A stretch of 64,000 nt of DNA from a virus (taxonomy: Duplodnaviria > Caudoviricetes): the IMG/VR virus record IMGVR_UViG_3300020577_007133, positions 1 through 64,000 of that record; one strand, given 5' to 3'. Shown piece after piece: positions 9,083 to 60,954 of the stretch. Below the pieces are notes generated by a model that was given only the letters and a program-made list of their open reading frames with translations, had not been told where the DNA came from and did not search any database. The stretch's first letter is position 1; the number at the start of each line of letters is the position of its first letter. Made by a program: the position numbers and the translations under genes.

Positions 9083-9155
9083 AAAAAATCTTATCAATAC
9101 TTGACACTTTTATAAAAAGGTGTATATTTATTAGAAAATTACAATAACACAGAAA

Positions 9156-11625: not shown

Positions 11626-12180
11626 ATGGAAGAATTAAATAGACATCAGAAAGCAGCGTTAGTAAGTAATACTAGACGTAGAGAAAAATCACTACAAGAA
11701 TATTATAGTAATCCTAATATTTGTAAGTGTTGTAATAAACCAATTCCGGTTGGTGAAAAACAAAAAGTTAGGGAAGTTAGGAGAAAGATTTTTTGTGACC
11801 ATAGTTGTTCGGCAACATTTAATAATCAATTACGAGAAATTAAAGAAAAGGTTAAGAAAATAAAAGAACCTAAACCTAAAAAAGAAAAATTTGAATTTAT
11901 ATTAAGTTTAACTAAAAAAGATTTAATAAGTAAACACGAAATTTATTATAAATTTAGAGCAGTAATTCGGAAACACGCACATTATGTGTATAATAAACAT
12001 CACGAACATCAAGAATGTAAAGTTTGTGGTTATGACACACACGTTGAAGTTTGTCATATAAAATCAGTATCATCTTTTAGTGATGATACTCTAATAAGTG
12101 AAATAAATTCTATTGATAATTTAGTTGGATTATGTCCTAATCATCATTGGGAATTTGATAATGGTAAGATAACATTATAA
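11626..12180 (+). CDS. HNH endonuclease
   Basis: CKVCG..EVCHIK..NLVGLCPNHHWEFD; FCDHSCS Zn motif. Confidence 0.9.
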   Translation: MEELNRHQKAALVSNTRRREKSLQEYYSNPNICKCCNKPIPVGEKQKVREVRRKIFCDHSCSATFNNQLREIKEKVKKIKEPKPKKEKFEFILSLTKKDLISKHEIYYKFRAVIRKHAHYVYNKHHEHQECKVCGYDTHVEVCHIKSVSSFSDDTLISEINSIDNLVGLCPNHHWEFDNGKITL

Positions 12181-15555: not shown

Positions 15556-16377
15556 ATGAAATATAGACACACAAAAGAAGAACTTGAGGATGTAGTTAAA
15601 AAATCGTTATCAATATCACAAGTATGTAAAAATTTAGGTATTATTGCTGCGGGTGGTAATTATAAAACGATACAAAACAAAATAATTGAATTTGATATTA
15701 ATATATCACACTTTACCGGTAAAGGGTGGAATACTGGTGAAAGATATAGAAAAGTTATATTACCAATACCTTTGAATGAAATATTAGTAAAGGGGTCTGT
15801 ATATGGTAGTAGTAAATTGAAAAAAAGATTGATTGATGAAGGATTAAAAACTTCTAAGTGTGAGTGTTGTAATTTATCAGAATGGATGGGAAATCCAATT
15901 GGTTTGGAATTACATCACATCAACGGGGATTCAAATGATAATCAATTACATAATTTACAAATTTTATGTCCAAATTGTCATTCTATGACTGATAATTATA
16001 GAGGTAGAAATATTAAAACAAAAAAAACAGAACCAACTGAAGAATGGGTCAACACCACACTTAAATATGTTATAAATAAGAGTGATGATGAAACAAAACA
16101 AATAAAAAAACAAGAAATTAAACAATGTTTAACTTGTAACGGAGAATATACCGGAAAAAGTAAAAAATATTGTTCCATTGAATGTTATTACGAAGCAAAA
16201 AGAATAAATAACACAATCCCGAAAGTTCCTGAATTATTGGAAATTTTTGAAAAATATAAAACATTCACATCCGTTGGTCGTCATTACAATGTTAGTGATA
16301 ATGCGGTTAGAAAGTGGTGTAGAAATTATGGGATTATGGAAATGATACAAAATATTCAAACATTAAAGCGACAGTGA
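15556..16377 (+). CDS. HNH homing endonuclease with C-terminal HTH
   Basis: CECC..LELHHINGDSNDNQLHNLQILCPNCHS; VSDNAVRKWC. Confidence 0.9.
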   Translation: MKYRHTKEELEDVVKKSLSISQVCKNLGIIAAGGNYKTIQNKIIEFDINISHFTGKGWNTGERYRKVILPIPLNEILVKGSVYGSSKLKKRLIDEGLKTSKCECCNLSEWMGNPIGLELHHINGDSNDNQLHNLQILCPNCHSMTDNYRGRNIKTKKTEPTEEWVNTTLKYVINKSDDETKQIKKQEIKQCLTCNGEYTGKSKKYCSIECYYEAKRINNTIPKVPELLEIFEKYKTFTSVGRHYNVSDNAVRKWCRNYGIMEMIQNIQTLKRQ

Positions 16378-43389: not shown

Positions 43390-45159
43390 ATGTCGAATTT
43401 AACTAAAGAACAAGTATTAATTGAATACGTAAAATGTAATAGAGATACTGAATACGCATTAAGAACTTACTTAGAAACGTATGATAACACGGTAAAAAAA
43501 TATGTTCCATTAGAACTTTTTCCGGACCAAATTACTCTATTAGATGATTATGAAAACTACAATGAAAACATAGCATTAAAATACAGACAAGCCGGGGTAT
43601 CAACAGTTACCGCGGCTTGGATGTCTAAAAGACTGGTTTTCGCAAGAAAAGAAACTCCTGAAAAAATATTAATTATTGCGAATAAGTTGGATACCTCATT
43701 AGAGATGGCCAATAAAATTCGTTCATTTGTTGGTCAATGGCCATCTTGGACCGGTGTAGGTTTTGATAAAGCCAAAAATTCCCAAAAACATTATAAATTA
43801 ACAAATGGTTGTGAGGTTAAAGCCGTTGCGACATCTAAGGATGCGTTACGTGGTTTTACACCTACAATACTTGTATTTGATGAGGCCGCGTTTATCGAAG
43901 CAGACAGTGACTTTTGGTCTGCGTGTATGGCATCCCTATCTACAGGGGGTAAAGTAATTGTTGTTTCTACACCGAATGGTTATGACGCAATTTACTATGA
44001 GATATATGACCAAGCGTTACGTAATATGAATGATTTCAAAATTACGGAAATGTTTTGGTATAGAGACCCAAGATATACTAAAGATTTATTTTTTGTTAAA
44101 ACAGATAATATTATTCATTATTTATTAAATAAAGAAGAGTATGACCCTAATACGTTTATTGATTGGGGTGTTAAATCTTATGACTCGAGGAATTTTGATG
44201 AGGTCAAAATATTAATGGCTGACGGTTACAAACCTTGTTCTTCTTGGTTTGAGGCGATGGTTAAGAAATTAAAATACGATAAACGTAAAGTATCTCAGGA
44301 GTTAGAATGTAACTTCTTAGGTTCCGGGGATAACGTATTTGATTCATTAATGATGCAAGATATTCGTGAGAATATGATTTTGGAACCAATACAAAAACTT
44401 ATGGGTAATGCTCTTTGGATTTGGAAGGAACCGGTTGTTGGTCATAAATATATAATGGGTGTCGATGTTTCCCGCGGGGATTCTGAAGATTTTAGTTCGT
44501 TCCAAATTATAGATTTTGACGAAAGAGAACAAGTTGCGGAATACGTTGGTAAATTACCTCCTGATACTATGGCGGAAATTTGTTTTAAATGGGCTAAAAT
44601 ATATTCGGCATATGTTGTTATTGATATTACCGGAGGTATGGGTGTTGCAACATCAAGAAAATTACAAGAAATGAATTATAAGGATTTATATGTTGACGGT
44701 GTTGAATTAGGTAATCAATGGAAATATGACCCTAAGGCAGCAGAAAAAATCCCGGGAATTAACTTTAATAATAAACGTGTTCAAATCATCGCCTCGTTTG
44801 AGGAAGCGATGAGACACAAATTTAGAATTTATAGTTCTCGTTTATATAACGAGATGAATACATTTGTTTATATTAATGGTCGTCCTGACCACCAAAAAGG
44901 TCATCACGATGATATGATTATGTCTATTTCGATGGCAACATACGTGGGGGAATCATCCTTTGCTAAACTAACTAAAGTTACAGAACAAACTAAGGCTATG
45001 TTAGAGTCTTGGTCTGTTAGTAATAATGAAACGGTTAAAGAGCATATTCATTTTGACCCAGTAATTCCACATTATCAAGATAGAATTAACCAATTTAACG
45101 GACAACAACTTAGTCGAGAAGATTATCAAAGATATGGTTGGTTATTTGGTATGAGATAA
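43390..45159 (+). CDS. terL: terminase large subunit (T4 gp17-like)
   Basis: LKYRQAGVST, VFDEAAF, STPNG, QELECNFLGS, GVDVSRG, HDD. Confidence 0.95.
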   Translation: MSNLTKEQVLIEYVKCNRDTEYALRTYLETYDNTVKKYVPLELFPDQITLLDDYENYNENIALKYRQAGVSTVTAAWMSKRLVFARKETPEKILIIANKLDTSLEMANKIRSFVGQWPSWTGVGFDKAKNSQKHYKLTNGCEVKAVATSKDALRGFTPTILVFDEAAFIEADSDFWSACMASLSTGGKVIVVSTPNGYDAIYYEIYDQALRNMNDFKITEMFWYRDPRYTKDLFFVKTDNIIHYLLNKEEYDPNTFIDWGVKSYDSRNFDEVKILMADGYKPCSSWFEAMVKKLKYDKRKVSQELECNFLGSGDNVFDSLMMQDIRENMILEPIQKLMGNALWIWKEPVVGHKYIMGVDVSRGDSEDFSSFQIIDFDEREQVAEYVGKLPPDTMAEICFKWAKIYSAYVVIDITGGMGVATSRKLQEMNYKDLYVDGVELGNQWKYDPKAAEKIPGINFNNKRVQIIASFEEAMRHKFRIYSSRLYNEMNTFVYINGRPDHQKGHHDDMIMSISMATYVGESSFAKLTKVTEQTKAMLESWSVSNNETVKEHIHFDPVIPHYQDRINQFNGQQLSREDYQRYGWLFGMR

Positions 45160-45179
45160 TATTTATCTAAAAAGAATAA

Positions 45180-46961
45180 ATGGGATTTAGTGATAGAAAA
45201 CGAAGTATTGATGTTTCCGTTAACATTAACTTAGATTTAAACCAAGAAATAAAACCTAATCAATTTTTAGTTGATAACAACATTAAAAGTGGGGATTTTG
45301 TTACTCGAAAAAAATCAGGTAATATTTTAGCGGGGTCTAAACTTAATGTTGAAGGTCAAGGAATTTATAATGTTAAAGTAATAAAAGGTCTTACTAAGGT
45401 ATTACCTAAACCAATTGAGGTAAATGGGGGGATTCCTCCAACACCAACATTAACTCCAACACCATCTGTAACCCCAACATTAACACCAACACCAACAATA
45501 ACTCCTACTTCAAGTTGTAATTGTACTTATCTTGATGTTACTATTACAGAAAGTGATTTAATATTATCGGTGGGTAATACTGACTTATCACTAAATAATG
45601 CGGTTTTTGTTAAATACCGAAACTGTGGTACAAATACAGTTATAACTAAAAAATACACTTCGGAAGGGACATTCCTTAATGATATTTGTGCGGTTTCAAG
45701 TACTACACCTGGAACTTCTTATTATGCAAATAATTCTCAAGAATTTGGTAGCAGTACCGCGAATAATAATGGTATATGTTGTGTACCTCCAACACCTACA
45801 CCAACCCCAACACCTTCAATAACACCAACAAATACAATAACTCCGACAACAACCCCAACCACAACTCCAACTCCAACACCAACTCCAATATTCCAATTTA
45901 CTAGTCAAAACTTATCGGGTATTGGTGGTCCTAATTATTTTTATTTAACAGACCAAGTAGACAATACTACTTCGTCCTACTTATATGGATTCTTTACCGG
46001 TTACACTTATAATAACACATCTGTGAATTACATAATTAAATTAAATCAAGATTTAACTGTTGATTATAGTTTTACAGGTGGTACTCAATTTAATATTAGT
46101 CCTTGGCCGTTCTTATATAATTCATTGACACAACAACCTGATGGAAAATTAATTGCAACAGGTACTTTTACTCAGTATAGTGGCGTATCCAGAAATAGAA
46201 TTATTAGATTAAATACTGATGGGTCAATTGATAATACATTTAATATTGGTACAGGATTTAATAGTATTACAGAAGGAACGGCAATAGATTCGTTAGGTCG
46301 AATAGTTGTTGTTGGTTTCTTTAGTTCGTATAGTGGAACTTCAAGTTCAAGAATTGCAAGATTAAATAGTAATGGTTCTTATGATTCAACATTTGTAGTT
46401 GGTACAGGATTAGATAATACCGGAGTTGAAGTTTTAATGAATTCAGATGATTCTATGTTTATATCAGGATACTTTAGTTCTTATAATGGAACGTCAACTC
46501 CGAACCATATCACAAAATTATTATCTAATGGTACTATTGACACATCTTTTAGTGGTGGAACAGGTTTTAATACAATTATTTATCAACCAAATGGATTAAT
46601 GAGAATATCCGGGGAAACGTCGTTCTACGCCTTTGGATTCTTTACAACATATAGTGGAGTGTCGGCAAATAGAATTATTAAATTAAATATAAATGGTACT
46701 ATTGACAACACATTTAATAGTGGTACCGGATTTGATAATGTAGTTTCTTTTGGTAGTGTTATATGGGTAAATAAATTATTATTTAATGGTGCGTTCACTT
46801 CATATAACGGGGTATCTTCTAATGGTACTATTATTCTTAATTCTGATGGAACAATATACCAAACATTTACAACTTCATATACGTCAGTATTTACAATTGG
46901 TAGTAAATTATATGGACAACCATTAAATCAACCAATTGAATTACTAACAACATACCCTTAA
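45180..46961 (+). CDS. virion surface protein with TP linkers and delta-60-type beta-propeller repeats
   Basis: PTPTPT tracts; repeats QPDGKLI..RIIRLNTDGSIDNTFNIGTGF. Confidence 0.7.
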   Translation: MGFSDRKRSIDVSVNINLDLNQEIKPNQFLVDNNIKSGDFVTRKKSGNILAGSKLNVEGQGIYNVKVIKGLTKVLPKPIEVNGGIPPTPTLTPTPSVTPTLTPTPTITPTSSCNCTYLDVTITESDLILSVGNTDLSLNNAVFVKYRNCGTNTVITKKYTSEGTFLNDICAVSSTTPGTSYYANNSQEFGSSTANNNGICCVPPTPTPTPTPSITPTNTITPTTTPTTTPTPTPTPIFQFTSQNLSGIGGPNYFYLTDQVDNTTSSYLYGFFTGYTYNNTSVNYIIKLNQDLTVDYSFTGGTQFNISPWPFLYNSLTQQPDGKLIATGTFTQYSGVSRNRIIRLNTDGSIDNTFNIGTGFNSITEGTAIDSLGRIVVVGFFSSYSGTSSSRIARLNSNGSYDSTFVVGTGLDNTGVEVLMNSDDSMFISGYFSSYNGTSTPNHITKLLSNGTIDTSFSGGTGFNTIIYQPNGLMRISGETSFYAFGFFTTYSGVSANRIIKLNINGTIDNTFNSGTGFDNVVSFGSVIWVNKLLFNGAFTSYNGVSSNGTIILNSDGTIYQTFTTSYTSVFTIGSKLYGQPLNQPIELLTTYP

Positions 46962-47010
46962 CATATTATACAACTATTTATATAGGAAAAAAAATATTTA
47001 AATTTAAATT

Positions 47011-48927
47011 ATGGAAAATAATCAAAATACAGATTTAACAGTTTGGCAGAGGTTATCTAGAGCCTTTGGTCCAAATTCGTTATTAAATCAAGATTACCCA
47101 ACATATTCATTAGATAAAAAGGAGTTATTAAAAACAACTTCTAAAGCCGAATATGAAAGGGAAAAATTACAAGCACAACAAACTTATTACTTAGCCAACC
47201 AATGGACTAAAATTGAGAGTAATCTGTATACTCAAGCGGTTTATTATGAGCCAACACGTTTAGCGTCATTTTATGATTATGAATCTATGGAGTATACTCC
47301 GGAAATTTCCGCAGCTTTAGACATTTATGGTGAAGAATCTACCACAGTAGATGAAACCGGTCATATGTTACGTATTTATTCCGAGTCAAAAAGGGTTAAA
47401 TCAATCTTGGATGATTTGTTTAATAATGTTTTAGATATTAATACAAATTTAACTATGTGGACAAGAAATACTTGTAAATATGGTGATAATTTTGTATATC
47501 TTAAATTAGATTCTGATAAAGGTGTTATTGGATGTATGCAATTACCTAACATAGAAATCGAACGTTTGGAACGAGGTATGGCTGCGAAATCAGCAAATAT
47601 TGAGGAACCTATTGAAAACAAAGGTCTCCGTTTCAAATGGAAGGCTAAAGATATGGAATTTAACTCTTGGGAAATCGCCCACTTTAGATTATTAGGTGAT
47701 GATAGAAAACTCCCTTATGGTACTTCTATGTTGGAAAAAGCGAGACGTATTTGGAAGCAATTATTATTATCTGAGGATGCAATGTTAATTTATAGAACAT
47801 CAAGGGCACCGGAGAGACGTGTATTCAAGGTATTCGTTGGTAATATGGATGATAAGGATGTTGAAGCTTACGTACAACGTGTGGCTAACAAATTTAAACG
47901 AGACCAAGTTGTAGATGCTAAGACAGGTAATGTTGATATGAGATTTAATCAGATGGCTGTTGACCAAGATTATTTTATCCCGGTACGTGACCCGGCACAA
48001 ACAATGCCGATTGAAACTTTACAAGGAGCTCAAAACTTATCAGAAATTGCTGATATCGAATATATCCAAAAGAAATTACTTACAGCACTCCGTGTTCCAA
48101 AATCATTCTTAGGGTTTGAAGAAACTGTTGGTGATGGTAAAAATTTATCTTTACAGGATATTCGTTTTGCAAGAACGATTAATAAAATACAAAAATCTAT
48201 GGTTGCCGAATTAAATAAAATCGCAATTATACATTTATTTTTATTAGGTTTTGAAGATGAGTTATCAAACTTTACTTTAACATTAATCAACCCATCAACA
48301 CAAGCGGATTTATTGAAAGTTGAGGTATGGAAAGAAAAAATTAATTTGTATCAACAAGCGGTTGCTGCAATTGATGGTATTGCACCTGTGTCAGTTTCTT
48401 GGGCTAAGAAAAATATTTTAGGTTTCTCCGACGAAGAAATTAAACTAGATTTACAACAACAACGTATTGAAAAAGCGGTTGGTGCTGAATTAACAAACAC
48501 TGCGACAATTATTACTCATACCGGTATTTTTGATAATATCGATAAATTATATGGTAACCCATCAGGGTCAACAAGTGGAGGTGGTGTAGAACCATCATCA
48601 CCGGCACCACCGGGAGGTGGAGGAGGTTTTGGAGGTGGAGACTTCGGAGGAGGTCCTGAACCTGATTTAGGTGGTGAATTAGGTGGTACACCTGAAACAC
48701 CAGGAGGTACACCTGAAACACCGGAAGGTGCTCCTGAAACACCGGGGGCAGAAACACCACCGGAAGGAGAAGAAGAATTAACTCCGGAATCATTTAATAG
48801 AGATAACCTTAAAATCTTATTAGAAAATGATAGTCTGATTGAAGAATCCTCTTATATTGATTTATCCAAGGGTAAAAATTCTTTAGGTGAAATTGAGTCT
48901 CAATTAGGAAAACTTCTAAAAGATTGA
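47011..48927 (+). CDS. portal protein (T4 gp20-like)
   Basis: EDAMLIYRTSRAPERRVFKVFVGN, DYFIPVR, ALRVPK. Confidence 0.95.
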   Translation: MENNQNTDLTVWQRLSRAFGPNSLLNQDYPTYSLDKKELLKTTSKAEYEREKLQAQQTYYLANQWTKIESNLYTQAVYYEPTRLASFYDYESMEYTPEISAALDIYGEESTTVDETGHMLRIYSESKRVKSILDDLFNNVLDINTNLTMWTRNTCKYGDNFVYLKLDSDKGVIGCMQLPNIEIERLERGMAAKSANIEEPIENKGLRFKWKAKDMEFNSWEIAHFRLLGDDRKLPYGTSMLEKARRIWKQLLLSEDAMLIYRTSRAPERRVFKVFVGNMDDKDVEAYVQRVANKFKRDQVVDAKTGNVDMRFNQMAVDQDYFIPVRDPAQTMPIETLQGAQNLSEIADIEYIQKKLLTALRVPKSFLGFEETVGDGKNLSLQDIRFARTINKIQKSMVAELNKIAIIHLFLLGFEDELSNFTLTLINPSTQADLLKVEVWKEKINLYQQAVAAIDGIAPVSVSWAKKNILGFSDEEIKLDLQQQRIEKAVGAELTNTATIITHTGIFDNIDKLYGNPSGSTSGGGVEPSSPAPPGGGGGFGGGDFGGGPEPDLGGELGGTPETPGGTPETPEGAPETPGAETPPEGEEELTPESFNRDNLKILLENDSLIEESSYIDLSKGKNSLGEIESQLGKLLKD

Positions 48928-48948
48928 TATTTATAATAAAAACATATT

Positions 48949-49665
48949 ATGAAATTCGGAATATTAAAATCAAAAATAGAGAACGTATTATTAGAATCAT
49001 ACGCCAACGATACATTTAAAGATGAAATTAAAAATTTCAAAAAATTAGTTTTGGAGAATAAAAATGTAAGTAAATTATTTTACTTGTATGATGAATTAAA
49101 TTCCCCAAAATCATTAAGTGAGTCGTATGCAAGAGAATACATCAATGAATGTATTAAGATGTATGAGAACACAATTAATAAAGTAAAACCTTCAGATTTA
49201 GATAAAATTAAATCTTGGGTTGGTAATAAACAGGTAGAAAATCTTTATGAAAATATTGATACATTATTTTCTACGGATGTATTAACGATTGAATCAAAAA
49301 TTAAAAGTCGTAATATTATTGTTGAGTCATTAAAAAAATTACCGGTTAAAGAAACTACGGGTATTGAATTACCATTAAGTACTATGGTAAGTGTTGCTAA
49401 TAAAACTATTAAATCTTATATCGAAACTCTTAATGAGTCAGAAAGAGAAGAGTTAAAAAAATTATTAAGTGAAGATGATTCAAAATTAAGTTCAGAATTT
49501 GAGGTTATCAAAGAAGACGTGGTTTCAAAATTAACAGAAATGAAAAATGCTAGCACTGATACCACAATGCAAAATAGAATAGATGAAACTTTAACTAAAG
49601 TATTATCTGAAAAATATGACAAATTAACTTATTTCAAACTTAAAGGACTAAAAGAAAATCTTTAA
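48949..49665 (+). CDS. hypothetical head-cluster protein
   Basis: Late motif; after portal. Confidence 0.7.
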   Translation: MKFGILKSKIENVLLESYANDTFKDEIKNFKKLVLENKNVSKLFYLYDELNSPKSLSESYAREYINECIKMYENTINKVKPSDLDKIKSWVGNKQVENLYENIDTLFSTDVLTIESKIKSRNIIVESLKKLPVKETTGIELPLSTMVSVANKTIKSYIETLNESEREELKKLLSEDDSKLSSEFEVIKEDVVSKLTEMKNASTDTTMQNRIDETLTKVLSEKYDKLTYFKLKGLKENL

Positions 49666-49856
49666 TTATTGTTTGATTTAAATTTTTTCTGAACATATTT
49701 AGCTTTATTAAGACCGTCACGTTTAATTACTGACGGTTTTTTAAATTCTTTTCTTTTTGCTAATTCAGAACTCTGTCTTGTTTTGATTACTTTACTTTTG
49801 TAAATTTTCAAAGCTTTCTCAATTGTTATATTATTTTCTAATTTAACTATAATCAT
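49662..49856 (-). CDS. rpsU: ribosomal protein bS21
   Basis: IEKALKIYKSK..RKEFKKPSVIKR..KAKY. Confidence 0.9.
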   Translation of the reverse strand: MIIVKLENNITIEKALKIYKSKVIKTRQSSELAKRKEFKKPSVIKRDGLNKAKYVQKKFKSNNN

Positions 49857-49953
49857 ATACTACATATATCACAAAATTCGGTAAAATTTGACTCCGGGGG
49901 TAAAAATACTTATTTTTTTATTATAATCAATAAACATTATAATATGAAAAAGA

Positions 49954-50412
49954 ATGAAGAAGGGGAAAACCTCTCAACTAAAGGGTTTTAAAACCGCAAA
50001 AGTGTTATACGGAACAGTAGATTCGGTAACATTAAAATCACTTTACTTAAATATTCAAACTTGGGTGGAGCCAATAATTGAGTGTGAAAATTGGAACAGA
50101 ATTGTTCTTAATATGAGTAGAAATGTAAAACACTCAGTCTATAAGACGATAAACAAAAAAATCTTCGACGAAAAATTTATAGTTGATTTAGACCTACGGT
50201 CAAGTGGTTTAAACGTTGATAAAAAATCATTTATGAATCTTGAAATTAATTTTTATCTAATCGATAATACTATAGATTTTAAATCCCTAACAATTAAAGA
50301 AACGTTAAATGATATTACAAATCAAATTTTTATGGATAACTTTTTGAACAATGAAATATTCAAATTTTATCTAACAAAAAAAGATAAATTGTTACAAAGT
50401 GATAATGTTTAA
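49954..50412 (+). CDS. hypothetical protein
   Basis: ORF between bS21 and protease. Confidence 0.75.
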   Translation: MKKGKTSQLKGFKTAKVLYGTVDSVTLKSLYLNIQTWVEPIIECENWNRIVLNMSRNVKHSVYKTINKKIFDEKFIVDLDLRSSGLNVDKKSFMNLEINFYLIDNTIDFKSLTIKETLNDITNQIFMDNFLNNEIFKFYLTKKDKLLQSDNV

Positions 50413-50435
50413 TATTTATTATTAAAACATTGAAT

Positions 50436-51161
50436 ATGAATTTAAAAATATTACAACCAAATGAATCAGGAAGAGGTATTCTTATCGAATATGATGCGGG
50501 TTATATTTCACCAACAGAAACAAGAAATATTGAAATAATCCGTGAATCTAGAGAAATGTTAGACCATTCAAAACCATTTGAGTTTTATGCTGTATTACAA
50601 AAATATAATACACCAAATAGAAATGGTCGTGTTTATCCTGAAAAAATATTAAAAAGAGAAGCAGAAAATTATAAAAAGATGATTAATAAGGGAATTGCTC
50701 TTTCAGAGTTAAATCACCCTGAATCATCTTTAATTGACTTGGATAGAGTTTCTCACGCTATCACAGATGTTTGGTGGGAGGGTAATGTGTTAATGGGTAA
50801 AATTAAATTACTTACCTCTCCGGGATTTCACGAAAGTGGGATTTGTTCTACTAAAGGTGATTTGGCCGCGAACTATCTAAGACAAGGTGTAACTTTAGGT
50901 ATATCATCAAGAGGTGTTGGGTCATTAAAAAAAGTAGGAGAACAAAACGAAGTTCAGGATGATTTTGAACTAATTTGTTTTGACTTAGTATCTTCACCTT
51001 CAACTCCGGGGGCTTATTTATTTTTAAATAAAGAAGACAAACATCTTTATGATGAAAATCTTGAAGAAGAGAAAAAAATGAGTGTTGAAAGACACGTTGG
51101 GGATTCTGGTAATAAATCTCTTGACTTAATGAAAAAATTAAACGATTATTTAGGGTATTAA
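50436..51161 (+). CDS. prohead core protease (T4 gp21-like)
   Basis: NRNGRVYP, ELNHP, VSH, GISSRGVGS, DLVSSPS. Confidence 0.95.
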   Translation: MNLKILQPNESGRGILIEYDAGYISPTETRNIEIIRESREMLDHSKPFEFYAVLQKYNTPNRNGRVYPEKILKREAENYKKMINKGIALSELNHPESSLIDLDRVSHAITDVWWEGNVLMGKIKLLTSPGFHESGICSTKGDLAANYLRQGVTLGISSRGVGSLKKVGEQNEVQDDFELICFDLVSSPSTPGAYLFLNKEDKHLYDENLEEEKKMSVERHVGDSGNKSLDLMKKLNDYLGY

Positions 51162-51178
51162 ACTAAATAGAAAAAAAT

Positions 51179-51388
51179 ATGGACGAAAAGTATTTCATTG
51201 CAAAAATTGCGTTAGAGACCGTGGATAATGAATCCGGTAAAGTAAAAATTAAAAGAGAAGAAAAATTAGTGAGTGGGTACAACCCTACAGATGTGGAGGC
51301 AAAAGTTACTAAAGTTTTTGAAAACTACACAATGGATTGGAGAATCACTGCAATTGTTGAAAGTAAAATTGATGAAGTGATAGAGTAA
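51179..51388 (+). CDS. hypothetical protein (DUF4494-like)
   Basis: GKVKIKREEKLV..TDVEAKV..ITAIVESKIDEV. Confidence 0.6.
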   Translation: MDEKYFIAKIALETVDNESGKVKIKREEKLVSGYNPTDVEAKVTKVFENYTMDWRITAIVESKIDEVIE

Positions 51389-51557
51389 TAATTTTATTCA
51401 ATAATTTAATAAAGAGGACATATCGTCCTCTTTTTTTATGCTTTTTAATTTTTTGATAATATTTATAGAAATATAAAAACCTGTTATGAATTTAGTAAAA
51501 ATTGAACTTTTTTCATAATGGGAGATATTTATATATTAAAATAACATTAAAACAAAA

Positions 51558-53126
51558 ATGGCAAACGAAAAATCTTTAGTTGAAGAGGCTATCATTCAAA
51601 TGAAAAATTTGGAAGAAGCTGTCGCTGAGAATGCAAAAGGAATACTTGCGTCAACAATGTCGCGAGAAATCAAAGAATTAGTAAAAGAATCTCTTACTGA
51701 ACAAGACGAGGATGAGATTGAAACTGACATTGATGTAGAAGAACCTTCAGGTTCTGAGGATATTGCTGACATTGAAATGGATAGTGATGAATTAGATGAT
51801 GAGGATGATGATACAGATATGGATAATATAGATATCGATATGGATATTGATGACGAAGATATGGACGACGAAGATATTGAGGATATGGACGACGAAGATA
51901 TGGACGACGAAGATACCATAGATTTAACTGACGCAGACGATGAAGAAGTTTTAAGAGTGTTTCAATTAATGGGACCGGATGATAATATTGTTGTTACTAA
52001 AGACGACAAAGGAAACACCCACCTAAAAGATGAAGAAACAGGTAAAGAGTATATGATTGTTGGCGAAAGTGAAGAAGAAGAAATGGACGAGTCTTGGGAT
52101 GAGGAAATGGACGAAGAGTGGGGCGGAAACAAAGATGATTTTAAAAGACGTGATGGTCATAAAATTGGTGATGTTGACGGACACTATAAAGATTATGAAT
52201 CAGACGAAGAAGAAATGGACGAGTCAATTGAATCTATCGTAGAAAGAATGTTTAATTCTGATGACGAAGATGATGAGGAAATGGATGAAGAAATGTATGA
52301 ATCTGACGACGAGGAAATGGACGAAGAAATCGTCTATGAAATTGAAATGGATGAAGAAATTGAAGAATCTATTTATGAGTCAAAATCAACAATCAAACCT
52401 AAAGGTGTTGGTATGGGAAAACCTAAGTTCTCATATGATTCAAAACCAAATCAAGGTGAAGGTTTTAAAACTAAAATGAAAGAGGGACCAAAAACTATGG
52501 GTACCGGAAAAGCTAAATTTACTTATAAAGATGGTGAAAACGCCGGAAGTAAATTAAGTAAAAATAAAATGGTGAAAAAATCTGAAACTAAAGAAGGTTC
52601 AACTGTTAAAAAAACAGAAACTAAAGAAGCTTCAAGAACATTAGGTAATGGGTCAGCATTTAGAAAAGGAGGTTTACCAAAACCAAGAGCACATTCTAAA
52701 GTAAATTCATCAATTAAAGAAAATACTTCAAATACCGAATTACAAGTTTTAAGAGAAAAGAATGAAGAATACAGAAAAGCTTTAGATATTTTTAGAAATA
52801 AATTAAATGAAGTTGCGGTATTTAATTCAAACTTAGCTTACGCTACTCGTTTATTTACAGAACATTCTACTTCAAAACAAGAAAAAATAAACATTTTAAG
52901 AAGATTTGATAGTGTTGAAACAATCAAAGAATCTAAAAATTTATATCAGACAATTAAAAATGAATTATCAGAAGTTGGAATTAAAACTCAGTCTGTTAAT
53001 GAATCACTTGAAAGAAAAATTGCTAAAGCACCTTCAACAGGTTCAGCGGTTAACTTAATTGAATCAAAAACATACGAGAATCCACAATTCTTGAGAATGA
53101 AAGATTTAATGTCAAAAATTAAATAA
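51558..53126 (+). CDS. prohead scaffold/core protein
   Basis: Very acidic, coiled-coil C-terminus, directly before capsid. Confidence 0.75.
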   Translation: MANEKSLVEEAIIQMKNLEEAVAENAKGILASTMSREIKELVKESLTEQDEDEIETDIDVEEPSGSEDIADIEMDSDELDDEDDDTDMDNIDIDMDIDDEDMDDEDIEDMDDEDMDDEDTIDLTDADDEEVLRVFQLMGPDDNIVVTKDDKGNTHLKDEETGKEYMIVGESEEEEMDESWDEEMDEEWGGNKDDFKRRDGHKIGDVDGHYKDYESDEEEMDESIESIVERMFNSDDEDDEEMDEEMYESDDEEMDEEIVYEIEMDEEIEESIYESKSTIKPKGVGMGKPKFSYDSKPNQGEGFKTKMKEGPKTMGTGKAKFTYKDGENAGSKLSKNKMVKKSETKEGSTVKKTETKEASRTLGNGSAFRKGGLPKPRAHSKVNSSIKENTSNTELQVLREKNEEYRKALDIFRNKLNEVAVFNSNLAYATRLFTEHSTSKQEKINILRRFDSVETIKESKNLYQTIKNELSEVGIKTQSVNESLERKIAKAPSTGSAVNLIESKTYENPQFLRMKDLMSKIK

Positions 53127-53161
53127 TAAATAAACTAAAAAAACAAATAAAAACCAAAAAA

Positions 53162-54979
53162 ATGGGAGCATTATTAGAATCAGGTCTAGTTGGTAATATT
53201 GGGTTAAAACACCTTAAAGTTATCAAAGAAGATACTATCAACAAATGGGATAAATTAGGATTCCTAGAAGGTCTTAAAGGACACTTAAAAGAAAACGTAG
53301 CTCAGTTATATGAGAACCAAGCGTCTTTCTTAATTAACGAGGCAACAGGTGAAGGTTCAAACGGTTCATTCGAAACGGTTGTATTCCCTATTGTAAGAAG
53401 AGTTTTCTCTAAATTATTAGCGAACGAAATCGTATCAGTACAAGCAATGAACTTACCAATCGGTAAATTATTCTACTTTGTACCTAAAATTCAAGGTTTC
53501 TCAGGTGGAACTATTAGTCAATCAGGTGACCACTACTCACCGGTAGGTTCTCCGGGTAATTACCCTGGTAATCCAACTAATGGTTATACAGGTGCAGGAG
53601 CATACCAAAAAAACCTTTATGATTTATTCTACGAAGGTACTGAACCAGGTTTAGACCCTGAAGGATTATTCGACTATTCAAAAGGTAGATGGTCGGCTAT
53701 TACGGCTAACTGTCAAACTGTTGCGTGGTCTAATGGTGATTTAGTAACATCAGCATATACTGCGGGAGAATTTAGAAAAATTTTAGTTGCTATGTCAGGT
53801 TTCTCATCTACGGGTGATGGAAAATTAATCGGACCTAACGGTCAAGAAATGGATACTGAAGAGTTTTTATCAGGTCTTAGATTATTCACTTCTGACTCAA
53901 CTGTGGCAACACAATTAGGTACATCAACTTATAGTAATTTATTATTTAGAGTTGTAACTCAAAAATACGGTAAAGGTATTGCACAATATGGAACTACAAC
54001 AACTACTACTTGGCCTACTGATGGTAATGGTGGTTCATTTAAAAACATTTGTGACGCTACAGGTGTTATCTATTTAGAAATTGATACTCAAGTACCGGTT
54101 TGTGTTTCTTGTGGTCAATCAACACCTGATGGTTATTCAGGAGCTACTATTACAACAGCAGCTTGGTCAGGTACAGGTGCTAGCTCACCAATTAAAGCGG
54201 CTTTCAGACGTTACGAAGAGTTAGAGTTTGAAGATAAAATCGGTGAAGTTTCTTTCGATTTAGAATCTGTTACAGTTTCTGTTACTGAAAGAAAATTAAG
54301 AGCACAATGGTCTCCTGAGTTAGCTCAAGACGTTGCGGCTTTCCACAACATCGATGCTGAAGCTGAATTAACAGCTTTATTATCTGAACAAGTTGCAGCA
54401 GAAATTGACCGTGAAATCTTACGTGATTTACGTAAAGGTGCAGCTTGGACATTACGTTGGGATTACAACGGATGGAGAAGATTATCAGCAACAACTTCTT
54501 ATACTCAAAAAGATTGGAACCAAACGTTAATCACTGCGATTAACCAATTATCAGCACAAATCCACAAATCTACATTAAGAGGTGGTGCTAACTGGATTGT
54601 AGTTTCATCTGAGGTTTCAGCTATCTTTGACGATTTAGAATACTTCCACGTATCTAACGCGTCTCCTGAGCAAGACCAATACAATATGGGTATTGAAAGA
54701 GTTGGTACATTAGCAGGTCGTTACCAAGTATACCGTGACCCTTACTTCCCAGCAAACACTGTGTTAATCGGTCACAAAGGTACATCGTTACTTGATACAG
54801 GTTACATCTACGCTCCGTACGTACCGTTACAATTAACACCAACAATGTACAACCCATTCAACTTTACACCTATTAAAGGTATAATGACACGTTACGCTAA
54901 GAAAATGGTTAACGACCGTTTCTATGGTAAAATCACAGTTGATGGTGTTAGAACATTCGATTTAAGAGAATTGAGATAA
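53162..54979 (+). CDS. major capsid protein (T4 gp23-like)
   Basis: VSVQAMNLP, RKLRAQWSPELAQD, EIDREI, YAPYVPL, GIMTRYA. Confidence 0.95.
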   Translation: MGALLESGLVGNIGLKHLKVIKEDTINKWDKLGFLEGLKGHLKENVAQLYENQASFLINEATGEGSNGSFETVVFPIVRRVFSKLLANEIVSVQAMNLPIGKLFYFVPKIQGFSGGTISQSGDHYSPVGSPGNYPGNPTNGYTGAGAYQKNLYDLFYEGTEPGLDPEGLFDYSKGRWSAITANCQTVAWSNGDLVTSAYTAGEFRKILVAMSGFSSTGDGKLIGPNGQEMDTEEFLSGLRLFTSDSTVATQLGTSTYSNLLFRVVTQKYGKGIAQYGTTTTTTWPTDGNGGSFKNICDATGVIYLEIDTQVPVCVSCGQSTPDGYSGATITTAAWSGTGASSPIKAAFRRYEELEFEDKIGEVSFDLESVTVSVTERKLRAQWSPELAQDVAAFHNIDAEAELTALLSEQVAAEIDREILRDLRKGAAWTLRWDYNGWRRLSATTSYTQKDWNQTLITAINQLSAQIHKSTLRGGANWIVVSSEVSAIFDDLEYFHVSNASPEQDQYNMGIERVGTLAGRYQVYRDPYFPANTVLIGHKGTSLLDTGYIYAPYVPLQLTPTMYNPFNFTPIKGIMTRYAKKMVNDRFYGKITVDGVRTFDLRELR

Positions 54980-56608: not shown

Positions 56609-58069
56609 TTATTCCAAATACTTTAAATTTACTATTTGGAATTTAATTTGTTTTTTATATGTATTTATTTCACCACTACTTATCACTTTTAAATCAATAT
56701 AATATTCATTAGGTATTTTGTCTCTAGTGTCAAATATAAAGTAATATTCGTTTGGTGTTCTATTTATTTTAGTCCAATCCTGAACTTCAACCTCGGTTTG
56801 ACCTTCACGTACATATACCCGATAATAAGCCTCTACGTTTGGTAATAATTTTTGAGTGGTATATGCTTGTTTAATAACAACTCCGACTTTTCTAATATCA
56901 GTATTATATATTTTTTCATCCTGTTTAATTCCGTAAAAATCAAAACCATACACTTTGGGTTCTTGTGTTGTGGTACCAATTTGAATCGATTTTTTCAATG
57001 GATGAATTGTAAATGAATTTGTAACATTTGGTAATGAAAAACCATTTAAAGTTAATCCCGACCAAATATCATAAAAAGAACAAGGGGTTTGATATCCAAT
57101 CAGAGGGGGAATTGTTACTTCATAGACACCTTTGGTTCTTTGGCACACATCTAAATAAGGGGTTGATAATCCTAATATTGGTGTTCCATTTGCATCGGAT
57201 ATAGAAACTGAAGGTAATGAGTCTAAGTTAATAGGGTTACCATCTTCATAAAGATATAGATACAACTTATTAACTTTACCTAATGAGAATGAATTTCTAT
57301 CATCTTCAATTAAGTCATCATAGTTAGTTTCTAAGAATGGTTCGTAGAATGTTTGAGTATGTCTAGTAAAGAATTGTACTTCGTAGTTCTCAGTTAATCC
57401 TGTTAGGTTTTCCACTTGTGGTAGATAAGCAATTCCCCACCCGGTAACATTAGTTAATTGACCGGTTAAAATACTGTTAATTTCATTCGTCATATCAAAT
57501 GAAATATTTTCATTACCAAATTGGAAATGTTGAGTATCCACGATTGTTAATGCACTATAAGGGAACATTCCGGTATTCTTATTGTTATAGATACCCGGTT
57601 CAGTCCAACCACCGATTGTTGTTGTTTGAATCCAATTGGAAGGTCTTGTAGAGAAGTTTTTATCTGAATTACTATAATCGTAAATTAAGTCGGCAAAATC
57701 ATAACCAACACCTTCATCCCATATTTGGTTATCCGGTATTCTAAATAGAATTAAGTCAAATGATGTTGCACGTAATCTACCTTGGGAAGTACTCGTATTT
57801 AATGTTTCAAGATTAAATGTTGAAGTATTAACCATTCTTAATGTGTGGGTCATACCATCAGTACAAGTTGTAGATATTGTTCCATCGGCAACCTTTTCTT
57901 GAAGAAGTGTAAGGTCTAAATCAAATATGAAACGACTATAACCATTTGGGTACTGTGATGTCGCCAACGAACCATAAAATAGTTCAGTCACCGGGTTTCT
58001 TCCGGTGTTGGTTAAACTATTTGATATGATTGTATTGTTTTTACTAAAATAGGAATTGTTAATTGACAT
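56609..58069 (-). CDS. putative tail/baseplate structural protein
   Basis: Beta-rich; late motif; structural context. Confidence 0.6.
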   Translation of the reverse strand: MSINNSYFSKNNTIISNSLTNTGRNPVTELFYGSLATSQYPNGYSRFIFDLDLTLLQEKVADGTISTTCTDGMTHTLRMVNTSTFNLETLNTSTSQGRLRATSFDLILFRIPDNQIWDEGVGYDFADLIYDYSNSDKNFSTRPSNWIQTTTIGGWTEPGIYNNKNTGMFPYSALTIVDTQHFQFGNENISFDMTNEINSILTGQLTNVTGWGIAYLPQVENLTGLTENYEVQFFTRHTQTFYEPFLETNYDDLIEDDRNSFSLGKVNKLYLYLYEDGNPINLDSLPSVSISDANGTPILGLSTPYLDVCQRTKGVYEVTIPPLIGYQTPCSFYDIWSGLTLNGFSLPNVTNSFTIHPLKKSIQIGTTTQEPKVYGFDFYGIKQDEKIYNTDIRKVGVVIKQAYTTQKLLPNVEAYYRVYVREGQTEVEVQDWTKINRTPNEYYFIFDTRDKIPNEYYIDLKVISSGEINTYKKQIKFQIVNLKYLE

Positions 58070-58149
58070 AAAATGTTTTAACAATAAATATCTTCTAACT
58101 TAAAAACTTTTTTTATATTTTTTTTTTAGATAAAATTAATAAAAAATCT

Positions 58150-59388
58150 AAACTTTTACTAAATTTGTGATATTTATATATAAGATGATTTATAAATCGT
58201 ATAAATATAGAATTTATCCTAACAAACAACAAGAAGAACTTATATTAAAACATATGGGTTGTTCTCGTTGGATTTATAATTATGGGTTGTCTCGAAAAAT
58301 ACATCATTACCAACAAGTCGGGAAAGGGTTATCCAAATTTGATTTAAAAAAAGACCTACCCGAACTTAAAAAAAATGAAGAAACATCTTGGTTAAAAGAG
58401 GTTAATTCTCAAACCCTACAAGCGTCATTAGAAAATTTAGATAAAGCCTTTACCAAGTTTTTTAAAGATAAAAAAGGATTTCCAAAATTTAAGTCAAAAA
58501 AAGATAACAGACAAAGTTTTAATATACCACAAAACACAATAATTGATTTTGAATCCGGAAAAATAAATTTACCAAAATTTAAAACGGATATTAAAGTTAA
58601 GATTGATAGAGTTTTTGATGGAACAATTAAAACCAGTACAATAAGTAAAACACCAACCGGAAAATATTTTATTTCTGTTTTGGTTGAGTCGCAACAAGAA
58701 TTACCAAAGAAAAAACCATTGAGTGAAAAACAAGCCATAGGAATTGATTTAGGTGTTAAAACTTTTGCAACATTATCAAACGGAATGGAAATAGAAAATC
58801 CAAAACATTTAAAAAAATCATTAAAAAAATTAAAGAAATTACAACGTAAAGTCTCTAAAAAACAAAAAGGAAGTAATAACAGACTAAAATCCGTTAAAAA
58901 ACTAGCAATACTTCACGAGAAAATAACCAATAAAAGAATGGATTTCTTACATAAAACATCACATTATTTGGTTACAAATTTTGATACTTTATGTTTGGAA
59001 ACATTAAAATCCGGTAATATGATGAAAAATCATACATTGGCTCAAGCTCTTAGTGATATATCTATTAGTAAATTTAATGAGATGATTGATTATAAATCCG
59101 AATGGTATGGATGTAATATTTTGAGGATAGGACAATTTGAACCTAGTTCTAAAATGTGTTCTTGTGGTGTTATAAATAAAGAATTAAAATTAAATCAAAG
59201 AGTTTGGACTTGTAATAGTTGTGGAACAACACATAATAGAGATATTCTAGCGGCAAACAATATTAAACACTTTGCTTTTACAAAAAATAATACTGCTGGA
59301 ACGGCAGAAATTTACGCTTGTGGAGATATGAAAGACAATAGTCGGTCAGCCCAAGAAACCCTACAATAATTAATTGTAAGGTGGTTCA
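58150..59388 (+). mobile_element. solo tnpB (IS1341-like) element; right end ..GGTGGTTCA
   Basis: No tnpA; hairpin TACAAT-AATTA-ATTGTA before TTCA end; left boundary uncertain. Confidence 0.65.
58185..59369 (+). CDS. tnpB: IS200/IS605-family TnpB RNA-guided nuclease
   Basis: YKYRIYP HTH, GIDLG (D), CLE (E), Zn finger, NRDILAANNI (D). Confidence 0.92.
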   Translation: MIYKSYKYRIYPNKQQEELILKHMGCSRWIYNYGLSRKIHHYQQVGKGLSKFDLKKDLPELKKNEETSWLKEVNSQTLQASLENLDKAFTKFFKDKKGFPKFKSKKDNRQSFNIPQNTIIDFESGKINLPKFKTDIKVKIDRVFDGTIKTSTISKTPTGKYFISVLVESQQELPKKKPLSEKQAIGIDLGVKTFATLSNGMEIENPKHLKKSLKKLKKLQRKVSKKQKGSNNRLKSVKKLAILHEKITNKRMDFLHKTSHYLVTNFDTLCLETLKSGNMMKNHTLAQALSDISISKFNEMIDYKSEWYGCNILRIGQFEPSSKMCSCGVINKELKLNQRVWTCNSCGTTHNRDILAANNIKHFAFTKNNTAGTAEIYACGDMKDNSRSAQETLQ

Positions 59389-60954
59389 ATTTATACGAAT
59401 ATTTTGATTTAGAACAGTATTATTTACATCGGCTAATAATTGGTTAATACTGGTTTTGGTTGTTTTGGAACCTTGGGTCGCTTCATCCGGTACCATATTA
59501 GAGTGAGGGTGAACGTGATTGTTCATAAAATCAACAATTTTTTCAATTAACTTGATTAATTCTTCACCCCTAACAGAAGAGTACGTTTTTTCAAATAAAG
59601 TATCTCCAACACCAACAAATCTATCTTGAGGAATACCATAAAGGGTATCAGATAAATTAATAATACCTTTTGGACTACCTGAGTTTTGAGATAATAAATA
59701 AACTTTTTGAGCCCCTAATACCCCATAACTAATATCTTCACTTTGTATTTTTGAAGGGGTTATACTTTCTTCTTTTAAATCAGACTGAGGTCCAAATAAT
59801 GGTTTTCCTCCTTTATTTCCGGAAACTAAAAACCAACCTTCCTCTTTTGAGTTATTAAGTTTTATATTGTTGTAGAAACGACGATAATTGATATATTCCA
59901 ACACATCAGGTAATGCGGTTGATGGTGAGAATTTTTTACCGGTTTCGTAGGTTTGTTTTGATGGGGTTACAATAAATGGAAATGCGTTTCTTAAATTCTG
60001 AATGTTATTAACGGTTATACCGGTAAATAAAATGTTTGGTGAATATATTAGTGATATGAAATCATTAATAATTTTCACACATTCAGTAAAAGGTTTACCC
60101 ATAAAAGAAACTGATTCCAATTCGGCACCATAATCCTCACCACTAGTTAAATCTAATATTGTATCAAACTTAAAATTTTGAGTATTAACTTTTGAACTTG
60201 GTTTTAGATTATATAGTTTAACAGAACCGGTAAATGAATCGGCACTCGAGTTTAGTGTAGTAATATCCCAAACAATCATTTTTTGAACCATTTGGATATT
60301 CTCAACTAATCTATATTTTGTTTCTTTTGGTAAATTTGTTTTTGTTTGAGTGAATCTTGTTAATTGTAAAAACGCTCTATTTTGATTTCCAACCGGGAAT
60401 TTATCTTTTGATAATTCTTTTGTTTTTCCGGCACGAATTAAAACTTCATTTTCTTTAACAATAACATCGGCAGTTCCACGACCCAATAAAGCATTATCTC
60501 CCGGTTCCGGAAATACCCCTTTACTTTTATCATTACGATATTCCCCGTCTTGGTTTTTCAAACTCATACCTTGTTTGATTCTATCACCGGTTGCCAAGAA
60601 TTTTTTAGCCCCTTGGTAATATTCAAATGGTGAAGTCATTGGGGATGAAAACGGACCTTGAAGATAAAATTGATTTTTATATGGGTATTTTTTATTCATA
60701 TAAATAATATGAACGTACTCATCTATTTTAGGTGTTTGACTAATATAGAAAGGTAATAAAGGTAAAAAGATTAACGGGTCTTTAGATGTCCATTTATCCG
60801 TCTCTTCATTCCAATCAGGAACTGACGCAATAATATCTTGATAGTTCTTCGTTTCAGGTATAATACGAAGTCTACCTAACATCATCGGGTCTTGGTTGTC
60901 ATAAACATACCCCGGAAATAATATTTGATATTTATTTTCGTTATCTATTGTCAT
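59386..60954 (-). CDS. baseplate hub/spike protein (gp5/VgrG-like)
   Basis: VYDNQDPMMLGRLR OB-fold start; RGEEL..HVHPH apex motif. Confidence 0.7.
   Translation of the reverse strand: MTIDNENKYQILFPGYVYDNQDPMMLGRLRIIPETKNYQDIIASVPDWNEETDKWTSKDPLIFLPLLPFYISQTPKIDEYVHIIYMNKKYPYKNQFYLQGPFSSPMTSPFEYYQGAKKFLATGDRIKQGMSLKNQDGEYRNDKSKGVFPEPGDNALLGRGTADVIVKENEVLIRAGKTKELSKDKFPVGNQNRAFLQLTRFTQTKTNLPKETKYRLVENIQMVQKMIVWDITTLNSSADSFTGSVKLYNLKPSSKVNTQNFKFDTILDLTSGEDYGAELESVSFMGKPFTECVKIINDFISLIYSPNILFTGITVNNIQNLRNAFPFIVTPSKQTYETGKKFSPSTALPDVLEYINYRRFYNNIKLNNSKEEGWFLVSGNKGGKPLFGPQSDLKEESITPSKIQSEDISYGVLGAQKVYLLSQNSGSPKGIINLSDTLYGIPQDRFVGVGDTLFEKTYSSVRGEELIKLIEKIVDFMNNHVHPHSNMVPDEATQGSKTTKTSINQLLADVNNTVLNQNIRIN

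Follow-up and report, generated by a model that had tools for sequence, protein, structure and literature searches.

The window analysed here comprises the first 64 kb of a 104,772-bp IMG/VR virus record (IMGVR_UViG_3300020577_007133), the DNA of which has a guanine-cytosine content of 31.5% and the CheckV completeness of which (approximately 35%) corresponds to a phage genome of roughly 300 kb. Between two conserved minus-strand genes, designated p491 and p522, positions 58090-59388 hold a 1.3-kb tnpB-only element of the IS200/IS605 family (IS1341-type), a member of a lineage that lives in phage genomes (Table 1). Four aspects of this locus are new: a target-adjacent motif (TAM) of WTTTA derived from five full-length relatives and from empty alleles, a canonical insertion in which a stop codon was replaced, the loss of the left end in both TnpB copies carried by the phage, and a tnpB gene that is apparently under selection.

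Table 1. Features of the tnpB locus, the adjacent genes, the head module and the second TnpB (positions as in the record; L numbers designate the loci and contigs compared)
Feature	Position	Strand	Remarks
Left flank	58077-58089	-	phage sequence TAACAATAAATAT; includes the promoter-like ATATTTAT box of p491 (58082-58089, read as the reverse complement)
Remnant of the element's left part	58090-58151	+	aligned with L041, L156, L157, L158 and L159; left-end hairpin missing
Promoter-like motif ACTTT-N13-ATATTTAT	58152-58177	+	exact; 7 nt upstream of the tnpB ATG; conserved in L041 and L157
tnpB	58185-59369	+	394 aa; predicted RNA-guided nuclease; ATG at 58185; last ~30 codons overlap the omega-RNA scaffold
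omega-RNA scaffold, 3' part	59269-59388	+	stem 1 at 59293-59307; long-range CUUG/CAAG helix; terminal hairpin at 59359-59381
Right-end terminus TTCA	59385-59388	+	final TCA reads as the TGA stop of p522 on the opposite strand
Predicted guide	59389-59408	+	16-20 nt, ATTTATACGAATATTTTGAT; antisense of the last p522 codons; directly 3' of the right end
p491	56609-58069	-	486 aa; conserved phage gene; open reading frame with ATG at 58069; next gene after p522 in all relatives
p522	59386-60954	-	522 aa; conserved phage gene; C-terminus ...NQNIRIN-stop, the same despite the insertion
Large terminase	43390-45159	+	head module
Portal	47011-48927	+	head module
Prohead protease	50430-51161	+	head module
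Major capsid protein	53162-54979	+	head module
TnpB-2	82233-83327	-	396 aa; 47% identical to the window TnpB; own scaffold; outside the window; element 82127-83330 (L002:1395-2598)

The predicted nuclease carries three Pfam domains in order and all above cut-offs, namely PF12323 HTH_OrfB_IS605 (residues 1-47), PF01385 OrfB_IS605 (165-282) and PF07282 Cas12f1-like_TNB (296-360); it also matches phrog_506 (E 1e-125) and aligns with ISDra2 TnpB across 366 residues (E 2e-75). The RuvC D-E-D triad, described as intact in an initial annotation of this DNA, is indeed so, as D188 (GIDLG), E272 (LETLK) and D353 (HNRD) align to D191, E278 and D361 of ISDra2. The same annotation had reported no tnpA, and this holds as well: neither a Y1 transposase (PF01797) nor a serine recombinase (PF00239) was found in the record, and five related phage records, three of which are 91-100% complete, likewise contain neither enzyme and have no TnpB.

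The uninterrupted form of the locus is seen in all 38 related loci found with p522 (51-88% protein identity), each of which lacks TnpB and has an empty site within the gene order p634-p74-p522-p491-p128; the p522 stop is followed by approximately 22 nt and then by the ATG of p491, the product of which is 72-92% identical in these loci. These 38 loci and the five TnpB-free genomes bear out the existence of the TnpB-free relatives that had been presumed. On the plus strand the closest empty alleles read ...AACAATAAATAT TTA GTTTATACG..., where the window reads ...AACAATAAATAT [58090...GGTGGT TCA] ATTTATACG..., such that 1,299 nt occupy the place of three bases, and comparison of the two forms reveals no target duplication. 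The TCA at 59386-59388 forms the TGA stop of p522, at the very codon where relatives have TAA, TGA or TAG. The proposal that the right end supplies the stop codon of what was called a structural gene is therefore correct as to the codon, but a stop is already present there in every relative; the p522 stop was replaced, not newly created, by the right end of the element. The locus thereby illustrates how an element can enter the 22-nt spacer between conserved genes without harming either, the target holding a stop and the terminus supplying a new one.

The right end itself is firmly placed. DNA homology with an 81%-identical element that resides in other flanks (L041/L042) covers 58122-59388 and stops exactly at 59388, and over 40 relatives (32-86% protein identity), found in viral and metagenome contigs, end in (G)GTAGTTCA followed by unrelated DNA, which establishes the terminal TTCA, as first annotated, as the true end of the element; the 9-mer GGTDGTYCA is unspecific when taken on its own (11 matches versus 9 for the control). 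Upstream of the terminus, the family shares a scaffold composed of a GGAAC-loop hairpin, ACGCUUGUGGAG, CAAGAA and the terminal hairpin, in which RNAalifold detects compensatory changes at 8 of the 11 consensus pairs. The window scaffold reaches 102 bits (E 1e-19) under a covariance model derived from 20 family members; across the 105 kb of the record, that model returns one further match, the scaffold of the second TnpB (40.8 bits), and no orphan guide-RNA genes; an Rfam scan of 57500-60500 matched no family. Relative to L041, the terminal hairpin has been re-spelled (CCCTACAAT/ATTGTAAGG versus CCAAACCA/TGGTTTGG) with its pairing kept, and it is followed by TGGTTCA, although its loop differs from the CTTTAG of the family. 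The synonymous divergence (dS) of tnpB halves in the last 54 codons, where the reading frame runs through the scaffold, as expected if those bases are under a second constraint.

In ISDra2, the guide is taken from the DNA directly 3' of the right end (PMC8612924), and application of this rule predicts a guide of 16-20 nt from 59389 onward, in agreement with the earlier placement of the guide just beyond the right end. No match to this guide with two or fewer mismatches occurs elsewhere in the 105 kb. As a separate observation, phages with 97.7% identity and the same element are distinguished by a 13-nt indel immediately beyond the right end (L041:4204-4222 versus L042:2190-2195 and L154; TTCA|TTACTAAAACTTAA|CTTAG versus TTCA|T|CTTAG), and their predicted guides therefore differ.

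Full-length close relatives of the element (77-86% identical) were found at five independent sites (L041/L154, L156, L157, L158 and L159), all with the layout of TTTTA or ATTTA, 10-11 nt, left-end hairpin, promoter and tnpB, approximately 1.34 kb in length and without tnpA; the loop of their left-end hairpin, CTTTAG, is also that of their right-end hairpin. With TTCA taken as the right end, ATTTA in the empty alleles (19 loci of the L003 type) immediately precedes the stretch that matches the guide, and a one-base ambiguity at the left ends of the relatives is settled by the junctions of the window together with these alleles, which fix the register. Among the residues through which ISDra2 TnpB contacts its TAM (Y52, S56, K76, F77, Q80, T123 and N124; PMC10097598), the last five correspond in the window TnpB to S, Q, Q, Q and N, which are the same in the five full-length relatives, whereas the positions of Y52 and S56 vary among these proteins. 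On the strength of the five left ends, the empty alleles and the TAM-contact residues, we strongly infer that the TAM is WTTTA, a motif found at 1.05% of positions in this genome; the initial annotation had pointed to empty alleles as the means of defining it. The candidates TTGAA and TTGAT, suggested by analogy with ISDra2 and with a gut-phage TnpB clade that has K-F like ISDra2 and adjoins TTGAA, were rejected for the clade of the window TnpB in view of the five full-length relatives, two sets of empty alleles and the differing TAM-contact residues. Canonical insertion at TTTAA was likewise set aside, as it would need one extra base and the TTTA register fits without it. Empty sites for the L041-type insertion were unusable, the relatives of that phage being too divergent in the intergenic and fibre-like region.

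The full-length relatives (L041, L154, L156-L159) fit the IS1341 group exactly, with TAM, left-end hairpin, tnpB and right-end hairpin. The window copy resembles the group in its right-end hairpin, in its family terminus and in its insertion 3' of a specific target of 4-5 nt, whereas its want of a left-end hairpin and TAM departs from the defining feature of a transposable insertion sequence. The lineage occurs almost only in phage and metagenome contigs (best match among bacterial genomes, 68%), and its more distant relatives L043, L047, L050 and L064 adjoin a Y1 TnpA. Two side observations concern other members. The 2,523-nt metagenome contig L155 combines the left flank of one site (L154) with the right flank of another (L156), which probably reflects chimeric assembly at the repeated element. 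In addition, the left ends of L251, L252, L253 and L257, approximately 190 nt upstream of tnpB, abut ATATTTAT-like boxes (e.g., TGATATTTATATGA| and CTATTTATAAAA|), an observation that extends to the target sites of the window element and of TnpB-2; the target motif of these elements may coincide with a -10-like box of phage promoters, which would steer insertions into intergenic promoters.

At the left junction, the phage sequence ending in ...AAATAT joins element-internal sequence at 58089/58090, and homology with the relatives resumes at about 58118. The empty alleles L003-L020 and L031 share this flank without change and continue with TTA|G; in the window the TTA is gone, and the block CAAGAAATCCC-hairpin(CTTTAG loop)-GGGATGAAT of the relatives has no counterpart, such that approximately 50-80 nt of the left end are missing along with the TTA of the TAM. 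A junction formed through microhomology with the element-internal TAACAATAAATAT of L041 was considered and dropped, as the motif in L157 aligns to element-internal sequence of the window and not to its flank.

These features point to the following course. The element would first have inserted 3' of WTTTA (here ATTTA, its TTA being the complement of the p522 TAA stop) by the normal route of the family; its conserved terminus TTCA would then have replaced that stop with TGA at the same codon, leaving both tightly packed neighbour genes intact; and a later deletion would have removed the TAM remnant and the left-end hairpin. Under this model, a sister lineage with a full left end at this locus would read AAATATTTA|A-LE. 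A canonical, TAM-directed insertion of an IS1341-type element with secondary loss of the left end is thus strongly inferred, and this account of anatomy and origin is held with high confidence. Excision of IS200/IS605 elements requires both ends, and neither TnpB copy of this phage is therefore a working transposon. The opposing view, namely that the element is a still-mobile IS1341-type transposon served in trans by a TnpA from the unseen 65% of the phage genome, from the host or from a co-resident element, with TnpB merely promoting retention, draws on the canonical close relatives with both ends at no fewer than five sites, on the Y1 TnpA beside distant relatives and on the fact that approximately 35% of the genome is covered. 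It is nevertheless very improbable, because the window copy has neither the left-end hairpin nor the TAM, its right-end loop differs from that of the family and no TnpA occurs in the 105 kb or in the three relatives that are 91-100% complete. The initial annotation had named a canonical left end, tnpA in trans and many scattered copies as signs against its own reading; full left ends do exist in relatives at at least five scattered sites, but the window copy has lost its own, and neither the 105-kb record nor the five related ones yielded a TnpA.

The second TnpB element of the phage, at 82 kb, appears to have a similar history. None of the 74 related loci fetched at its site contains a TnpB, and ATTTA stands in register at its right end in the 12 empty junctions examined. 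In the phage, 23 nt of spacer, among them the promoter box of the 278-aa gene downstream, have given way to the element; on its left side, 18 nt of phage spacer with the TAM and that promoter box are gone, together with the left end, and the predicted guide AATAGAAAAAGTTGAT spans the start region of the 278-aa gene. Two independent copies in one phage thus appear to have followed the same course of events, transposition and then left-end loss. An association between loss of the left end and loss of the right-end CTTTAG loop was not significant when scored with a crude automatic classifier (Fisher p = 0.14). Several further details of this lineage were noted. The target of TnpB-2, TATTTA|TATAT, is itself a promoter box, and a 10-bp inverted repeat (TTCTATTTTT ... 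GAAAATAGAA; L002:2600-2660, minus-strand view) that could be an operator or an RNA hairpin brackets the TnpB-2 promoter box TGATATTTAT. Relatives of TnpB-2 (L245-L297) are common in large phage contigs, some being full-length with CTTTAG-loop hairpins at both ends; in others (L258, L259-261/L293 and L262) the left end was undetected and the terminal hairpins are short and AT-rich.

The promoter-like motif ahead of tnpB recurs in the phage. At no more than one mismatch, ACTTT-N13-ATATTTAT has 9 matches in the window versus 1.08 expected, and with a spacer of N12-14 it has 9 matches in the 105 kb, each situated 4-25 nt ahead of an ATG. Behind it lie three HNH genes (633-1055, 15556-16377 and, with one mismatch, 11626-12180), one GIY-YIG/NUMOD3 gene (1421-2068), the leader of a tRNA block at 9106 and several open reading frames of unassigned function. 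The claim that tnpB shares the late promoter of the HNH and GIY-YIG genes is accordingly upheld as regards the motif class, although its designation as late is without support. To judge from relatives in other phages, which carry it too, the motif belongs to the element lineage. Two 51-codon open reading frames beyond the window, 96678-96833 (+) and 102661-102816 (-), begin with MGRK... and MARP..., respectively, 5 nt behind a perfect motif; since they begin similarly to the GIY-YIG gene at 1421, they may represent either small genes or pieces of endonucleases.

No terminator-like site was seen past the right end on the plus strand (window 59389-59600), so a transcript begun at the TnpB promoter would continue in antisense direction into the 3' end of p522 and meet that gene head-on; a scan for sigma-70 promoters and terminators was uninformative. 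This arrangement raises the prospect that TnpB has been domesticated for a different job, such as binding the p522/p491 junction independently of nuclease activity or regulating the 3' end of p522 through the antisense read-through transcript, instead of cutting rival genomes, given that both the transcript and the guide are antisense to the last p522 codons and that TnpB relatives have become RNA-guided regulators. The latter, the nuclease-dead prophage repressors known as TldR (10.1101/2023.11.30.569447), are likewise phage-borne, devoid of a transposase and in possession of a guide scaffold. TldR proteins have lost the RuvC catalytic residues, however, whereas D188, E272 and D353 are intact here; moreover, the match in the phage's own genome has no TAM, which should keep the complex from binding there, and the relatives do without such a regulator. 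Domestication of this kind is accordingly judged improbable.

Comparison with related strains suggests that tnpB is being maintained. The ratio of nonsynonymous to synonymous substitution rates (dN/dS) of tnpB is 0.10-0.12 against relatives that are 84-86% identical. Near-identical sequence is present in runs from about nine studies spanning wastewater, sludge, freshwater and rivers, and contigs from four runs were compared, material that reveals neither RNA ends nor expression levels and cannot show that empty alleles are lacking. One sludge run yields an identical contig across the left junction, and a wastewater run from another study yields a contig that diverges by 2.3%, shares this left junction and is free of frameshifts across 58185-59154. 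In the latter strain, 9 of the 13 listed tnpB differences are synonymous, which is suggestive rather than conclusive because only 15 of the 25 differences are listed. Given the low dN/dS, the mostly synonymous strain differences and the fact that the left end was deleted twice while promoter, reading frame and scaffold were kept, TnpB apparently remains under selection.

A function that could account for such selection was proposed in the initial annotation, namely RNA-guided homing into, or exclusion of, TnpB-free relatives. TnpB would be transcribed from the promoter of the element and would process its own transcript to the omega-RNA, as self-processing by TnpB is known (PMC10278001), with the 16-20 nt past 59388 serving as the guide. 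The complex would then cut genomes in which ATTTA is followed by a guide match, that is, the uninterrupted p522/p491 junction of co-infecting close relatives, whereas the carrier copy would be protected because its match follows GTTCA, which is not a TAM. If the break were mended from the carrier genome, the cassette would be copied into the cut one (homing); a break left unrepaired would eliminate the rival (exclusion). The empty relatives, the TAM in register and the closest empty alleles (L003, L004 and L031), which combine ATTTA with a 19/20 guide match, speak for this proposal, and TnpB-driven homing at vacant donor sites is documented in bacteria (10.1101/2023.03.14.532601; PMC10690162); no paper on such homing between phages was found in the literature screened by title and abstract.

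A number of observations weigh against homing or exclusion. The element most probably arrived by transposition, not by homing. Position 1 of the guide is mismatched in every sampled empty allele, with one to three mismatches in total; most empty alleles have two or three mismatches within the first 12 nt of the guide, and those of the L021 type lack the TAM (TATCA). All strains seen to carry the cassette share at least about 97% identity and belong to a single phage lineage. The flanks give no signal of co-conversion or recoding, the sequences adjacent to the insert being as similar to those of relatives as the rest of the genes, or more so. Near-identical phages showed no empty allele, there being no joint that skips 58090-59388 in the contigs of the four runs, although contigs cannot show absence, and much of the tnpB dN/dS signal may have arisen before the left end was lost.

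Many of these points would be equally at home in an account whereby the element transposed in, lost its left end and has simply not yet decayed, its TnpB being useless both to itself and to the phage. Its occurrence in a single lineage with all 38 relatives empty, the lack of a relative with a perfect guide target, the missing co-conversion tract, a low dN/dS that could largely predate immobilisation and a terminal hairpin without the CTTTAG loop of the family are all compatible with such a dead end. What speaks against such an account is that reading frame, triad, promoter and scaffold have come through unharmed although both copies lost the neighbouring left end, that the scaffold stem is kept by compensatory changes, that substitutions within the lineage are mostly synonymous after the junction had formed, and that the occupied allele recurs in identical or near-identical form in several studies that sampled sludge, wastewater, freshwater and rivers. 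A dead-end remnant is accordingly regarded as rather unlikely. RNA-guided homing or exclusion as the present function, which the closest empty alleles make plausible, is advanced tentatively and with somewhat less than even confidence, and the combined statement of anatomy, origin and that function is put at an even balance. A broader generalization is more doubtful: that left-end-less, transposase-independent TnpB/omega-RNA cassettes of lytic jumbo phages constitute a self-sustaining RNA-guided class of "intronless homing" or rival exclusion, seeded by transposition at a TAM that overlaps a TAA stop or a promoter box (where the right terminus repairs the gene scarlessly), locked in place by end loss and kept by selection for cutting the uninterrupted allele of co-infecting relatives.

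The cassette can be set beside several known systems. With ISDra2 TnpB (PDB 8BF8, 8EXA and 8H1J; PMC8612924, PMC10097598) it shares domain order, catalytic triad, a scaffold within the tnpB 3' end and right end, a guide taken from the flank and a TAM on the left flank; it differs in having S75 and Q76 where ISDra2 has K76 and F77, in its probable TAM (WTTTA versus TTGAT), in having no TnpA in cis, in its deleted left end, in its lytic-type jumbo phage host and in its phage-class promoter. Like SegF and the other Seg/Mob free-standing endonucleases of T-even phages ("intronless homing", reviewed in PMC13565253), it is a nuclease gene situated between conserved genes that are adjacent in relatives, its predicted target is the uninterrupted junction of those relatives, and its promoter is of the class that serves the HNH and GIY-YIG genes of the phage; as for homing elements generally, occupied (window) and empty (38/38) alleles of one conserved locus exist. 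Recognition by TnpB, however, would rely on an RNA guide and a TAM rather than on protein, and the marker exclusion, co-conversion and multi-lineage spread of homing elements were not seen for the window cassette.

If cutting takes place, the locus links transposon-borne guide nucleases to phage-phage competition; if it does not, the insertion is an ordinary decaying one. In either case, the locus offers a clean test case, as the sequence gives TAM, guide, a junction that protects itself and natural empty alleles whose mismatches are defined. In bacteria, TnpB keeps transposons at their donor site; we know of no demonstration, in the literature searched, of TnpB acting alone, without a transposase, as a gene drive or weapon between viruses.

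The genes that flank the cassette are conserved. Searches of INPHARED DNA and proteins with the locus, p522 and p491 returned no match, and p491 had zero matches in Pfam, PHROG and INPHARED. For p522, Pfam, PHROG and PDB gave zero matches, a PDB profile search found no solved relative, and the predicted fold is unusable (predicted local distance difference test score, 43.7); its only leads are weak and gp5/gpV-like, Phage_base_V being the sole Pfam family reached by its relatives at E up to 5 (2 of 12 members). The label of spike or essential gene, under which p522 was first described, is consequently without evidence, and p522 may be a baseplate hub or spike protein. An N-terminal motif, FPGYVYDNQDPMMLGRLRVIPE (window 60880-60954), is invariant in 12 relatives with faint database support only; we take it to resemble the OB-domain motif of baseplate hub proteins of the gp5/gpV/VgrG type. 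As the minus-strand p491/p522 block comes after the head module, a tail or baseplate role for it is plausible. Within the head-module region (43390-54979), an unassigned 522-aa open reading frame at 51558-53126 also lies behind the promoter motif.

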